Shown here one piece after another: positions 24,001 through 30,000 of a DNA stretch of 47,021 nucleotides. The stretch comes from Enterobacteria phage cdtI. The number at the start of each line of letters is the position of its first letter. Within the stretch, counting starts at the first letter, position 1. The stretch lies in the sequence record NC_009514.1, one strand, 5' to 3'. Made by a program: the position numbers.

Positions 24001-27000
24001 TAATGAAACAGACAGGCGAGTATCTACCGAACCGTAGATGTTATGGTCATATTGCATAGTTTTTGGGGGAATATAAAGAATTATATTTGAGTATGCTGTT
24101 TGTGACTCTGGGAATAATAACGAGCATTATAATAAACTTGTTTGTTTTTCTGGTTTCGCATTTCCTCATTAATCTTGTTGGTAATATTTTCGTTGCTTTG
24201 TTGTTTCTATTTTTTTATAAAGAAGAGGTGGTGCAGAGGAGGAAATACAGTGGATAAAAAACTAATTGCATTTTTGTGCACACTTATAATTACTGGTTGC
24301 TCGAATGGGATCGGTGATTCACCTTCACCTCCGGGAAAAAATGTAGAATTGGTTGGAATCCCTGGACAAGGTATTGCAGTGACTTCAAACGGTGCAACTC
24401 CAACACTTGGAGCCAACAACACTGAGTTTCCTGAAGTTTCAATAATGAGCACTGGTGGGGCGCTGCTTACTATTTGGGCCAGACCTGTTCGTAACTGGCT
24501 TTGGGGGTATACTCCTTTTGATTCAGTAAATTTTGGTGAGAATCGGAACTGGAAGGTTGTGGATGGGAAAGATGCCGGCACAGTGAAATTTGTTAATGTT
24601 GCCCAGGGGACTTGCATGGAGGCCTTTAAAAACGGGGTGATACATAATACCTGTGATGATAACTCGTTATCTCAGGAGTTTCAGTTACTGCCTTCTACTA
24701 ATGGTAATGTGCTTATAAGAAGTAGTGCCTTGCAGACGTGTATAAGAGCAGACTATTTAAGCAGAACTATATTGTCACCGTTTGCTTTTACAATCACCCT
24801 TGAGAAATGCCCTGGTGCAAAAGAAGAAACGCAAGAAATGCTATGGGCAATAAGTCCACCTGTCAGAGCGGCAAAACCAAATCTGATTAAGCCAGAGTTA
24901 AGACCATTCAGACCATTGCCAATTCCACCTCATGACAAACCTGATGGAATGGAGGGAGTATGAAAAAATTATTATTCCTGTTAATGATTTTGCCGGGTAT
25001 TTCTTTTGCAGATTTAAGCGATTTTAAAGTTGCAACCTGGAATTTGCAGGGTTCAAATGCACCGACAGAAAATAAATGGAACACACATGTCCGACAACTT
25101 GTTACGGGAAGTGGTGCTGTTGATATCCTGATGGTTCAGGAGGCAGGGGCAGTACCAGCTTCTGCAACGTTGACTGAGCGAGAATTTAGCACTCCTGGTA
25201 TTCCGATGAATGAGTATATCTGGAATACCGGAACCAATAGTCGCCCACAGGAGTTGTTTATATATTTCTCACGTGTTGATGCATTCGCTAACAGAGTAAA
25301 TCTTGCGATTGTTTCAAACAGAAGAGCTGATGAGGTGATTGTATTACCTCCTCCAACTGTTGTATCACGACCGATCATCGGCATTAGAATTGGTAATGAT
25401 GTTTTCTTCTCAACCCATGCATTGGCGAATCGGGGCGTGGATTCAGGAGCAATTGTAAATAGTGTTTTTGAGTTCTTCAACAGACAAACGGATCCTATAA
25501 GACAGGCCGCTAACTGGATGATTGCAGGAGATTTTAACCGTTCACCGGCTACACTATTTTCAACTCTTGAACCAGGGATTCGCAATCATGTAAATATTAT
25601 TGCTCCACCAGATCCAACGCAAGCCAGTGGTGGTGTTCTTGATTATGCAGTAGTTGGAAATTCAGTGAGCTTTGTTCTTCCTCTGTTGAGGGCCTCGTTG
25701 TTATTCGGATTATTAAGAGGGCAAATTGCCTCTGATCATTTTCCGGTTGGCTTTATTCCTGGAAGAGGAGCAAGAAGATGAAAACAGTTATTGTGTTTTT
25801 TGTTTTACTGCTGACAGGTTGTGCTTCTGAACCTGCAAATCAGCGTAATCTTCTTACTCAGTTTGTCGGCAACAATGCCCCTGTAGACCCTGAACCCAGT
25901 CCAGTATTGGTTAATATCAGAAACGTTCTTACAGGGGGGATAATCCGAAATCCTGTTGGCAGTGACTTTAATGTAAATAATTGGGTTATATCTGAAGTAA
26001 AGACTAATGATTTGGATTTGATATCGGCACCGGGAGGGCATGTTCAGATTAAAAATCCTGATGGCAATGAATGCTTTGCTATTCTAAACGGGCAATTGGC
26101 AGTGGCTAAGCAGTGCTCTGAAAGTGACCGTAACGCATTGTTTACATTTATAACCAGTGATACTGGGGCTGTGCAAATCAAGTCAATAGGAAGCGGTCAA
26201 TGCCTAGGGAATGGAGAGAGCATTACAGATTTCAGGTTAAAAAAATGTGTTGATGATCTTGGGCGTCCTTTTGATACGGTGCCGCCGGGGTTACTCTGGA
26301 TGCTGAATCCACCATTATCTCCGGCAATAATGTCTCCATTAACGAGCTGATCTGGAAAACGCGGCACGTTGTATGCAACTTGCCGCGGTTGGCTGGTAAG
26401 CTTTTTGATAGTGCGAGTATTGAATGATTTCCAGCCGTTACTGATTTTACGTGCTAATTAGTGAACAAACCACTCGTCAGCAGACTCCCAGGTATCTTTC
26501 AGAGTTTCCTGAACAAAAGTTTTAGCTGAATCTTTATCGGCGGTGCGCGTAACAGAAAGGCCATCGTTGCTGGTGGCTTTTACGATCACCTCTACATCGT
26601 CATAACGTTTACTGATGCGTCGGGTTAATTCTTCCTTTAACGCATCCACAGCACCGTTTGGCATTTTAGTCATTTTCTCTTTGGCTATGCAGATCTCAAT
26701 ACGCATAAAAATCCCTCTATACTGTGTTTGTATACAGTATTATTTTTAACTGTATGAATAAACAGTGTCAATAGAACAAAGATTGCTGCATGTACAAATG
26801 TTCTTTGGCTACAAATACACCTACTGATCATGTTCTGCTATGCTCTGATACCTCCAAAATGTACAATCAGCGGCATGAATTTTTCTTTGTACATATGATT
26901 GTACATAATCAAAGAGACAACAATTATGACAAGCCTTTTGGCCGCAGAGGTAGCGAAAAGAAGAACCTTTGCAATTATTTCTCACCCCAATAATTAAGCC

Positions 27001-30000
27001 CAAATTAAAGCTCTTTTACTCTTTCAAAGTCCTTTCAGTTAATTGAGTGCTAATCATATAACTCATTTAATAACATGATGTTATGTGGTTTCTTTAATTG
27101 AAAATTCTTTCATGTAACTTTAAATCGATCAGGTTGCTTTCATCAAAAATCTGTACATGTGCTTGTACATAATGTACAAAACAGCAGAGGTGTTTTTTTA
27201 TTTGTACAAGGTGAGTAATGGCGCTGTCTGATGCGTGGTTGCGTTCAGTCGTTGGAAAGGAACGTGATAAGGTTTTGGTTAAATCCGATCGTGATGGTCT
27301 GTCTGTCAGAGTATCACCGAAAGGTCGCGTAGTGTTCCAATATCGTTATCAATGGGCAGGGAAAGGTGAGCGCCTTGATATCGGAACTTACCCGGCAACT
27401 GGATTAAAAGAGGCCAGAGAAGAAGTTATCCGTCTCCGTGGTGAACTCGAGTCAAACCGCAATCCACGATTAGTCAAGCAGGCTGAAAAACGAAAAGCTA
27501 CTGAAGCCATGACGGTAGAGTCTGTGATCCGTGCCTGGTATGAAGCATATTGTGTAAAAAATAAAAAAGGTTCTGAACAGATACTCCGCTCGTTTGAGCT
27601 GCACCTGTTCTCTAAAATCGGGAATATCCCTCACGATGCAGCTACATTGCATGATTGGTTAGAAGTCCTGGAGCCTCTTAGCACTAAGACTCCAGCAATA
27701 GCAGACCGATTGCTAATTAACGCAAAGCAGGCCCATGTCTGGGCGTATAAGAGAAAGCTCATTGAAACTCGCCCGCTGTCGGATATCACGGGTAAAGATA
27801 TGGATATCCGTAAAGGTCAGAAGAAACGGTTTCTGGCACATGATGAAATTAAAATCCTTTATGCTGCGATCGATGGTTCTCGAATGGTTCCTAAATACCG
27901 GGCCTTCATTAAACTATTGCTGCATTTTGGCTGCCGTAGTTCAGAGCTAATTACCGCTAGGGTGGATGATTTTGATTTCATTAATAAGGTATGGACTGTA
28001 CCGCCAGAACGACATAAGACAGGGGATATAACAGGCGAACCGCTAAAGCGCCCCATTATTGAACCGGTTGAAGAGCTTATAAAGTACGTTATCTCTATGA
28101 ACAATGGTTCCGATATGCTTTTTACTAAGGAAGGAAGCAGGGAACCCGTTGGCCGGACATCATTGCAGTCGCTGCCTTACAATTTAATGCAGTACGCATG
28201 GCGGCGTTTGGGGTATCAATTCCCTCATTGGTCTCTTCATGATTTGAGACGAACAGCACGAACAAACTTTTCTGATCTTACTGCACCTCATATTGCAGAA
28301 ATAATGCTCGGTCATAAACTGCCAGGGGTATGGCAGGTTTATGACAAGAGCGATTATTTAGATGAACAGCGTAAAGCTTACCAGGCATGGTGGGAGAGAG
28401 TTGAATCGATAGTTACTTGTACTTGTTCAGACTAGAACTGACATTTTGCATAGGCAGAACGCAATTATGCATATTGCGGTATAATCCCCTTCTTAAAACT
28501 GTAAGAATTGCTTGCTAATCCTTGCAGTTTTTGATTATAACATTTTTATTTGTTTATTAGGATTTTTGATGGAACTGTTACAGGAACACGGGGCGATACT
28601 TAAAGTTGTAATCATGCCTACTACTGGGGAACAAACCATAATCCAAGGTTTCGATACTGGCCTCCTCAACCCAGAGATATCCAACATTCTTTTTTTATTG
28701 GCCAAAACACCAAAAGAAATTAGTGAGATTTTTGTCAATGAAAATGATAACTTTCAGCCTACTCTAAGCGGGCTAAATCCTATTTTTTTAATATCTAAAG
28801 AAAATCTTGAAAAAATACCAAATATTTATCAAACGCCATTTTGCTTAATTTTTTGTGCTAAAGAAGATTTTTCGTATGTTTGTGCTTTAAAAAAACATTT
28901 TGCTATACCACCTATAATTTGTTGCAATTCTAAACGCGCTGATCTACCACTTAATAAGATTAATAGTATATACTCATTTGATAAGGTGCTCTTCTCTCGG
29001 TTGAAATTCATTGAGGATAAAATAAGAAAAAATCACAGTGAAAAGAAAATATCAACGAAGTTGAAGCGAAGAGGGGCTTTATTTAATAAATCACCTTGGA
29101 GATCGACGCTTAACAATTCAACACTACCCAATGAGTTGTTAATTGAATCACTTGGCTATATGCTATCTCCACCAAAAAGAATTAAAGATGGTAGTAGCAA
29201 AAGAGAGTTTATAGAAATAATACTTCATAGCGTTGATGCATACACCGAATGTTTAAAGGAATTAGATATACCACTTCCAACGGAAGTCTTACTTTTTGCT
29301 CCGGGTATGCACTCTTTTTTATATGATAAAAATAATGACTTTTATGAGTTAATAACGGAAAATTTATCCACAATTGAGAAAAAATTCCTTATTGATGGAG
29401 TGTTGAGGAATCCAGGCTATTCTGGAATTAGACTTGATATAAATTCAGATAGAAAAGAACTTTTTAAAAGTCCTGCTTTCCGTTACCTCACCTCACTAAG
29501 ACGCGCTGAAATGCGATTAACAACAGCTGCGATTACTTTATTTAGCATAAATAAAAAAATCCCAGCAATAAGATTGCCAAATGCAATAAATCATTACTCC
29601 AATTATTTGAAAAATCTTGAAGATCTTGCAACTTCTTCTGGGATAAATAGTGAAGCATTCATCACTAAATCTAAAGCATTCAATACTGTTATTCGAAGAG
29701 CCCTTGGTTGCAAGTTGAGAACATATATAAGTAAAAACTATAGCGATTTGTCCTTTGTTTGTGATGTACCATTGGATTGGATTAGGTTTAATAACATACC
29801 TATAATGTTCAGTCATGAGATATCAAGAATAAATGCTACGCCTGGTAACGTTCTTCTACAGAGCACCTCTGCTTTTCCGCGCGTTTTAGTAAAAGCATCT
29901 GAGTTGAGAAAGGTTTTAGTTATACGTTCTTTTGAGCCTGATGATCACTTAAAGTTCATATTAGAGAACGCAATTGAGATATTTAAAAAACAGATGCCAG

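Follow-up and report, generated by a model that had tools for sequence, protein, structure and literature searches.

What is the function of a dense cluster of TGTACA hexamers that lies immediately before the integrase gene of Enterobacteria phage cdtI? The question is raised by sequence record NC_009514.1 (one strand, 5' to 3'), analysed here over its whole stretch of 47,021 nucleotides and referred to below as the window, in which the intergenic region between a dinI-like gene and int holds eight copies of this hexamer. An initial annotation, made from the sequence alone, had read them as arm-type integrase sites around the core of the phage attachment site (attP). Arm sites of attP are in themselves textbook biology, and the useful part of the work is the generalization of the motif. 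Here we conclude that the TGTACA hexamers are most likely the centres of arm-type sites for the N-terminal domain of the SXT/P4-type integrase (Int), a reading supported by the junctions of lysogens, the arm-binding domain of Int, islands in the right (P') arm that persist down to 43% Int identity, and tandem pairs in the left (P) arm of other elements.

A TGTACA cluster between dinI and int

The eight positions of the initial annotation were exact (26791, 26860, 26888, 26900, 27152, 27164, 27173 and 27203). They fall within 418 bp, with five other copies across the remaining 46.6 kb. The total of 13 copies in the window, where 9.8 are expected, is unremarkable, so the signal is the clustering of the hexamer and not its total number. 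The intergenic region (26707-27217) is AT-rich, with a GC content of 0.32, and a first-order Markov simulation of it gives an expectation of 0.31 TGTACA; none of 20,000 runs produced eight, and the earlier statement that the hexamer lies far above chance therefore holds for its clustering. A control for multiple testing is weaker, in that some 6-mer reached eight copies in 111 of 3,000 simulations (3.7%), and this favours seeing the cluster as a chance by-product of AT-rich, low-complexity intergenic DNA. Against such an origin stand the simulations of TGTACA itself, the confinement of all six exact copies of TTGTACAT in the 47 kb to this region, and the conservation of the positions across 80 species (below); the comparative data effectively refute it, and we give chance next to no probability.

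The 8-mer TTGTACAT is exact at six of the eight sites, three on each strand, and has no further exact copy in the window, while 27152 (CTGTACAT) and 27203 (TTGTACAA) each deviate from it by a single base. Sites 26791, 26860 and 27173 read on the minus strand, 26888, 26900, 27152 and 27164 on the plus strand, and 27203 is palindromic. The pairs 26888/26900 and 27152/27164 are both tandem with a 12-bp spacing and are part of a 35-nt direct repeat with 77% identity. Across the family, comparison of the sequences gives the 10-bp palindrome TRTGTACAYA as the consensus of the putative arm site, with TTGTACAT as its extension in the window. The arrangement in two clusters is as first described, and the segment between them, given as about 245 bp, measures 246 bp (26906-27151); the 10-bp gap to int had to be corrected, as only 9 nt separate the end of the last hexamer, which adjoins an AGGTGA ribosome-binding site, from the int ATG (27218).

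Lysogen junctions place the core between the clusters

The initial annotation presumed an attP core between the two clusters, and named a junction mapping that puts attP elsewhere as the result that would refute its reading. We carried out this mapping in silico with a 651-bp query over the region against public E. coli genomes. The query matches lysogens as two halves, 26946-27300 beside yjjG-prfC' and 26650-26987 fused to prfC, with the split point at 26946-26987. Lysogens thus have attR where the left part of attP meets prfC and attL where its right part meets yjjG-prfC', and these junctions place the core at 26974-26987, between the clusters as presumed. The 14-bp core was read directly in the attL of IHE3034, in the attL and attR of an Stx2c phage and in K-12 prfC, and record LC727876 (the Stx2c phage) annotates the same 14 bp, ATTATTTCTCACCC, as a 'duplication due to insertion'. 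In attB, the core consists of the prfC codons for I-I-S-H-P near the 5' end of the host gene. It contains no GTAC and differs from the arm repeats, whose centres are found at -187 to -78 bp (left) and +174 to +225 bp (right) relative to the core centre.

The core sits inside a phage-borne substitute for the prfC 5' end, which replaces the host 5' end at attR. The RefSeq annotation of prfC in lysogens runs across this phage-borne end, and an O121 attR has the same dinI-prfC arrangement as the window. At attL (IHE3034, L003:2978-3050; window 26988-26996), the truncated host prfC frame is closed by a TAA of the phage, 9 nt beyond the core. The P arm is fused to prfC at an identity of at least 95% in 700 of 5426 complete E. 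coli genomes (about 13%); for the 651-bp query, in which 57 bp of dinI, its control region and the initial 83 bp of int are also present, the number is 1455.

Right-arm repeats are conserved with the integrase

Relatives of Int grade from 97% to 43% identity. The set collected as one genome per GTDB species gave 80 loci with Int identities of 43-99% and GC contents of 25-67%. In these loci the density of GTAC is 2.7 per 100 bp at positions -100 to -1 of int and 0.15 per 100 bp farther upstream, two or more copies precede int in 78 of the 80, and the 12-bp spacing was counted 75 times. The family consensus of the P' pair reads TaTGTACAT..tGTGTACATAA (AAaTaTGTACATat.tGTGTACATAAa) and is followed after 37-40 bp by an int-proximal consensus, AAAaTATGTACACAg, mostly 14-20 bp before the ATG. 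The remainder of the right arm diverges among the 80 relatives while the tandem pair and the proximal site stay, and the layout holds from Acinetobacter and Phlomobacter (GC 0.25-0.33) through Burkholderiaceae and Methylibium (GC 0.64-0.67). An alignment of nine sequences (60-100% Int identity) has only four invariant blocks, namely the core, TGTACA at 27152, TGTACATAA at 27164 and T.TGTACA at 27203; around the latter three, which stay invariant down to 43% Int identity, the arms have diverged. Site 27173 is kept in relatives with at least 78% Int identity (the window, Trabulsiella, Pantoea and Logan-assembly contigs) and is degenerate or absent in Symbiopectobacterium, Xenorhabdus, Serratia and beyond. 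Seven look-ups of Int relatives of intermediate identity returned attL sites or contigs broken at att, which served as P'-arm and negative controls; they yielded no P arm from a relative with 60-85% identity.

The left arm carries the same tandem pair

P arms from the E. coli and phage collection are all at least 95% identical to that of the window, except for one record in the 80-90% band, which was left out. Searching IMG/VR twice with alignments of Int gave, for the most part, near-identical E. coli prophages that are cut at att; only L175 was of use. We compared six other intact attP sites and found a left-arm GTACA pair in four. These are the viral contig L175 (order xis-attP-int), with tGTACAtaccatcGTACA 29 bp before the substitute prfC ATG; L016, a Micavibrio metagenome-assembled genome, with gcGTACAtatccgcGTACA 22 bp before the substitute ATG; the SXT/R391 element R997 (NZ_KY433363), with tgtGTACAaatccgtGTACA likewise 22 bp before it; and Acinetobacter phage ABMM1, which inserts at a hairpin downstream of alaS and has a GTACA pair on each arm. 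A Morganella circular prophage has a single left-arm site, and a lepA-targeting subclade has the layout with another motif, GTGTCCA (below). The distance from the left pair to the substitute ATG downstream of it is 21-29 bp in the prfC-type elements. Upstream of native prfC, in 38 attL loci that served as a control, GTAC is no denser than background, and the single locus with a pair, L016, is itself an intact attP. The comparison with attP regions of related phages that the initial annotation had proposed as a check thus finds the left-arm pair recurring outside the window. The coordinates of the window features are collected in Table 1.

Table 1 Features of the attP region and of the recombination genes in the window, with arm assignments as predicted
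Feature	Position	Strand	Remark
attP, whole (P arm, core, P' arm), between dinI-like gene and int	26780..27217	+	Both arms contiguous in the window
Putative most distal P-arm site, ATGTACAA, inverted	26791..26796	-	Read from the sequence only
Putative distal P-arm site, ATGTACAA (inverse of TTGTACAT)	26860..26865	-	11-nt perfect inverted repeat with 26900
Putative P-arm tandem pair, TTGTACAT at 26887-26894 and 26899-26906, 12-bp spacing	26888..26905	+	21 bp upstream of substitute prfC ATG
Phage-borne substitute prfC 5' end, ATG at 26926, MTSLLAAEVAKRRTFAIISHP	26926..26987	+	Sequence reading
Core (crossover), ATTATTTCTCACCC, 14 bp	26974-26987	+	Identical in attP, attB, attL and attR
Four CTTTCA direct repeats (27021, 27032, 27107, 27137), between core and P' pair	27021..27142	+	Candidate excisionase sites
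Putative P'-arm tandem pair, CTGTACAT and TTGTACATAA, 12-bp spacing	27152..27169	+	Invariant columns in nine-sequence alignment
Putative extra inverted site; with 27164 forms perfect 17-bp palindrome TTGTACATAATGTACAA	27173..27178	-	Lineage-specific
Putative int-proximal site, TTGTACAA, palindromic, adjoins int ribosome-binding site	27203..27208	.	Invariant T.TGTACA block in nine-sequence alignment
int, 405-aa tyrosine integrase: Arm-DNA-bind_3, Phage_int_M, Phage_integrase	27218..28435	+	Pfam
xis, 64-aa excisionase, HTH_17-like, convergent with int	30809..31003	-	PHROG 1553 'excisionase', E=1.9e-35
DNA considered as partner of the Int arm-binding domain, TATGTACATA			

The same comparisons bear on a caveat of the initial annotation, namely that the CI (or Cro) repressor, with its half-site TTGTACC resembling TTGTACA, might bind the repeats. 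The OR operator TTGTACCgatagGGTACAA (35251-35269) does have TTGTAC in common with them, and CI is a phrog_4 repressor. However, a search for the 19-bp pattern TTGTACC-N5-GGTACAA with up to three mismatches matches only at 35251 and 34497 and nowhere in 26700-27230. The sole inverted pair in att (27163-27179) has N5 and not N7 between TTGTAC and GTACAA, with A instead of C at position 7, and the GTACA layout is kept in integrative and conjugative elements (ICEs), islands and phages with unrelated regulators. Repressor binding to the repeats is now extremely unlikely. As an observation on the repressor region itself, cI (34560-35234), on the minus strand, and cro (35325-35525) are separated by a CI/Cro operator candidate at 35251-35269, TTGTACCGATAGGGTACAA, whose 19 bp form a perfect palindrome. 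A second, degenerate candidate, ATGTATCTCAAGGGTACAT, lies left of cI at 34497-34515.

Integrase or excisionase as the binding protein

The Pfam domains of Int are PF13356 (Arm-DNA-bind_3, residues 3-90, E=1.9e-16), PF22022 and PF00589, and residues 1-80 match the arm-binding domains of PDB 3jtz/3rmp (E=1.4e-6). The locus combines an Int arm-binding domain with repeats that stand on both sides of the core, are unlike it and are conserved with the integrase lineage. The arm-binding domain is also the best-conserved part of Int, with 57% identity versus 34% for the rest of the protein against R997, and 66% versus 45% against the Morganella element. By target, the GTACA-type loci comprise 42 at prfC and 8 at lepA, with others downstream of alaS, and the motif is independent of the target.

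A different protein that could occupy the GTACA repeats is the excisionase (Xis), a recombination directionality factor (RDF) of the helix-turn-helix (HTH) type. An Xis-like gene accompanies int in nearly all relatives, where it directly follows int on the opposite strand as a conserved convergent pair, and the 12-bp tandem spacing, about one helical turn, resembles RDF site arrays or filaments. However, identity to the window Xis is only 19-31% among the Xis proteins of relatives, and these form two types between which phmmer gives no match at E<=1e-3; motif and spacing are invariant even where Xis diverges to 19-25% identity or belongs to the unconnected type. The same motif also stands on both arms and beside the int start, and the RDF sites of characterized systems are usually confined to a single arm, where the core and the Int sites flank them. 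The interval between the core and the GTACA pair is occupied by another family of repeats, which varies with the Xis type. In the window this family consists of CTTTCA repeats, partly conserved in the nine-sequence alignment; TTTCA occurs at least three times in 6 of 9 loci with the window type of Xis, while the other type goes with AGACA/GGACA repeats instead. With low-to-moderate confidence, the CTTTCA repeats are better candidates for Xis sites than GTACA. Taken with the conservation of the Int arm-binding domain, this makes excisionase binding to the GTACA repeats improbable, and we favour Int over Xis as the binder, since the motif tracks the Int arm-binding domain and not the target gene or the excisionase.

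One subclade departs from the motif. In Enterobacter and Edwardsiella circular prophages inserted at lepA (44-46% Int identity), the motif is GTGTCCA and not TGTACA, and the architecture is kept, with a 12-bp pair on each arm and inverted copies near int (L254:1185-1215, 1415-1490; L255, L256). The Int of this subclade differs at near-invariant residues of the N-terminal domain (W7Y, S29W, Q41F, R52K and D54T). The change from GTACA to GTCCA together with these arm-domain residues would be a natural specificity switch for DUF4102 arm recognition.

Several points weigh against assigning the hexamers to Int. The GTGTCCA change arose once in evolution, and Int and Xis both differ there (the subclade has a different Xis, of 94 residues, a point in favour of excisionase binding). 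Every relative also has a small HTH excisionase, so that co-occurrence alone cannot tell the two proteins apart, and the palindromic consensus is unusual, as arm-type sites are normally asymmetric. At the level of single sites, 27173 is not conserved throughout the integrase lineage, and the distal sites 26791 and 26860 are without comparative support, in the case of 26860 because the P arms available with this site do not fall below 95% identity; the match of an E. coli attR variant (NZ_CP095816) to the P arm begins only at 26828. Site 27173 is lineage-specific, and so, putatively, are 26791 and 26860. Finally, a consensus scan of 26600-27300 gave no sigma-70-like plus-strand promoter for int, and neither a strict nor a relaxed IHF consensus matched in 26700-27230; for this reason the autoregulation and DNA-bending steps of the mechanism below rest on analogy.

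Further side observations concern the range of the integrase family. The same family also makes insertions at the lepA 5' end, with a substitute lepA start MKNIRNFSIIAHID (L254:1180-1503, L255, L256), and further lepA-inserted loci are L044, L048, L055, L058, L060, L076, L078 and L080. The codons in the lepA crossover region are the homologues of those in the prfC core and belong, in both translational GTPases, to the region of the G1 motif, which suggests retargeting between paralogues. ABMM1 and related prophages (L085:1270-1320; L201, L185) have an Int of this family and integrate at a hairpin, ATGGCATTAAT...ATTAATGCCAT, that closely follows an alaS-like gene, and the ABMM1-type elements carry their AGACA/GGACA repeats between the core and the GTACA pair.

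A possible role of the sites in the control of int

In the mechanism that we propose, each Int protomer would hold an arm site with its N-terminal domain and a core site with its C-terminal domains, and attP would be folded into an intasome together with DNA-bending proteins and, for excision, Xis. The P arm would contribute the tandem pair 26888/26900 and two inverted distal copies, and the P' arm the tandem pair 27152/27164, the inverted site 27173 and the proximal site 27203 beside the int ribosome-binding site. Integration leaves int, which is read away from attP, co-oriented with the host prfC promoter and downstream of it, and Int bound to the P' sites would probably repress its own synthesis, as IntS of KplE1 does. 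In KplE1, repression of the intS promoter depends on arm-type P' sites together with the RDF, a negative autoregulation (PMC2951348). The layout in the window is of this type, as int adjoins att and reads away from it while xis, on the minus strand, is not co-transcribed. By this analogy, autoregulation of int is plausible, and 27203 would be the likeliest autoregulatory site. The host prfC promoter at attL has the orientation of int and is directed at it, and a scan of the P'-arm DNA of the window gave no terminator-like site between the two; repression by bound Int would therefore be useful. A promoter annotated in phage Ayreon was considered and rejected, as it is on the opposite strand, in DNA that corresponds to the dinI control region of the window, and does not serve int.

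The position of the sites also allows the hexamers to be seen as promoter or operator elements of int and the hybrid prfC, used by RNA polymerase or a host regulator and not in recombination. TGTACA has 4 of 6 positions in common with the -35 consensus TTGACA, the P-arm pair keeps its distance of 21-29 bp from the substitute prfC ATG in four lineages, the proximal P' site adjoins the int ribosome-binding site, and a weak candidate can be found by eye (-35 TGTACA at 27173, 17-bp spacer, TTTTAT). This is nevertheless very improbable. The consensus scan above gave no plus-strand promoter, the 37-40 bp between the P' pair and the proximal site misfit the geometry of -35 and -10 elements, and native prfC genes lack the motif in their upstream DNA. 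Conservation of the motif from Alphaproteobacteria to Gammaproteobacteria at GC contents of 25-67% makes a host-specific regulator unlikely, and a promoter role would in any case be compatible with the binding of Int.

A broader proposal, which we regard as rather unlikely at present, has two parts. The arm sites of the SXT cluster would all be TRTGTACAYA palindromes in 12-bp pairs, recognized in an orientation-free or dimeric manner unlike lambda, and occupancy by Int would couple the recombination state to the expression of int and of RF3 (or of LepA in the sister clade). Such coupling of both genes could arise from the fixed distance of 21-29 bp between the P-arm pair and the prfC start supplied by the element, and from the placement of the P' sites between the host prfC promoter and int. 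If true, mobile element and translational GTPase would be connected by a regulatory link that is built in.

Comparison with known systems

The closest parallel is IntSXT of the SXT/R391 elements, which has the same target, the 5' end of prfC at the I-I-S-H-P codons, supplies a substitute prfC 5' end and carries a DUF4102/Arm-DNA-bind_3 N-terminal domain. R997 has the same GTACA tandem pair upstream of its substitute ATG and two pairs on the other arm. The two integrases are otherwise distant, with 38.8% identity over 99% of the length. In a published phylogeny, the cdt-I phage and SXT integrases belong to one 'SXT cluster' that targets prfC (PMC8138268), and the window Int is accordingly a member of the IntSXT (DUF4102) subgroup. 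The order of genes in SXT/R391 also differs, with attP-xis and then int, so that the arm sites there are not positioned for int autoregulation; int is expressed from the SetCD-dependent promoter Ps003 (PMC4344509). What is new here, from comparison of the sequences, is that the cdt-I phage and SXT integrases have a putative GTACA tandem-pair arm motif in common. No description of SXT arm-type sites or of TGTACA integrase sites was found in the searchable literature, and an earlier description may exist. The attP of R997 (L257:4140-4576, L258) has three GTACA tandem pairs in all, with spacings of 12, 12 and 13 bp, two of them between the core and xis.

As predicted arm sites, GTACA pairs with a 12-bp spacing would mark the attP arms of a family that mobilizes cytolethal distending toxin (CDT) and Stx prophages as well as the SXT/R391 resistance ICEs, and whose related integrases adjoin prfC or lepA in many Proteobacteria. 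The motif could hence serve as a sequence signature for delimiting such elements and for telling attP from attL, and would offer targets for footprinting and integrase engineering.

The recombination modules of KplE1 (CPS-53), HK620 and Sf6 (IntS and TorI, with an attL that overlaps the intS promoter) resemble the window in that int reads away from att, the gene for the RDF is not coupled to int, and the integrases belong to the IntSXT/P4 subgroup with DUF4102. In these modules int is transcribed from within the P' arm, and arm-type sites overlapping the int control region give negative autoregulation, as may also be the case in the window. The modules differ from the window in Int sequence (about 22% identity, HK633 IntS), in their target, the tRNA gene argW, and in their arm motif. 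With lambda, the window has in common a heterobivalent integrase, non-core repeats on both arms (P1, P2 and P'1-P'3 in lambda) with tandem copies about one helical turn apart, and five to eight sites per attP. The arm sites of lambda are asymmetric, whereas the arm consensus here is a 10-bp palindrome. The lambda int gene is read toward attP and is controlled by PI/PL/sib (summarized in PMC2951348), and the arm-binding domain has an extra strand and helix compared with lambda (PMC8138268). The closest solved structures are those of the HPI and HAI7 (CP4-like) island integrases (PDB 3jtz, 3rmp and 3ju0), which are of the same domain family and distant in sequence.

Neighbouring genes

The DinI-family gene to the left of the region occupies 26458-26706 on the minus strand. 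Upstream of it lie two LexA-box-like palindromes, CTGTgtttgtatACAG (26722-26737) and CTGTatgaataaACAG (26750-26765), which overlap a minus-strand promoter-like site (TTGACA-18-AAAAAT, 26771-26742), so that a dinI gene predicted to be SOS-controlled directly adjoins the P arm. Between int and xis lies a gene for a 729-residue CHAT-domain protein (PF12770, phrog_34827; 28512-30701), which looks like inserted cargo, possibly for defence, because int and xis are immediately adjacent and convergent in relatives. At the prophage end by attP, with only dinI between, stand open reading frames similar to cdtA, cdtB and cdtC (273, 273 and 190 residues; 24142-26350), identified from their translations.

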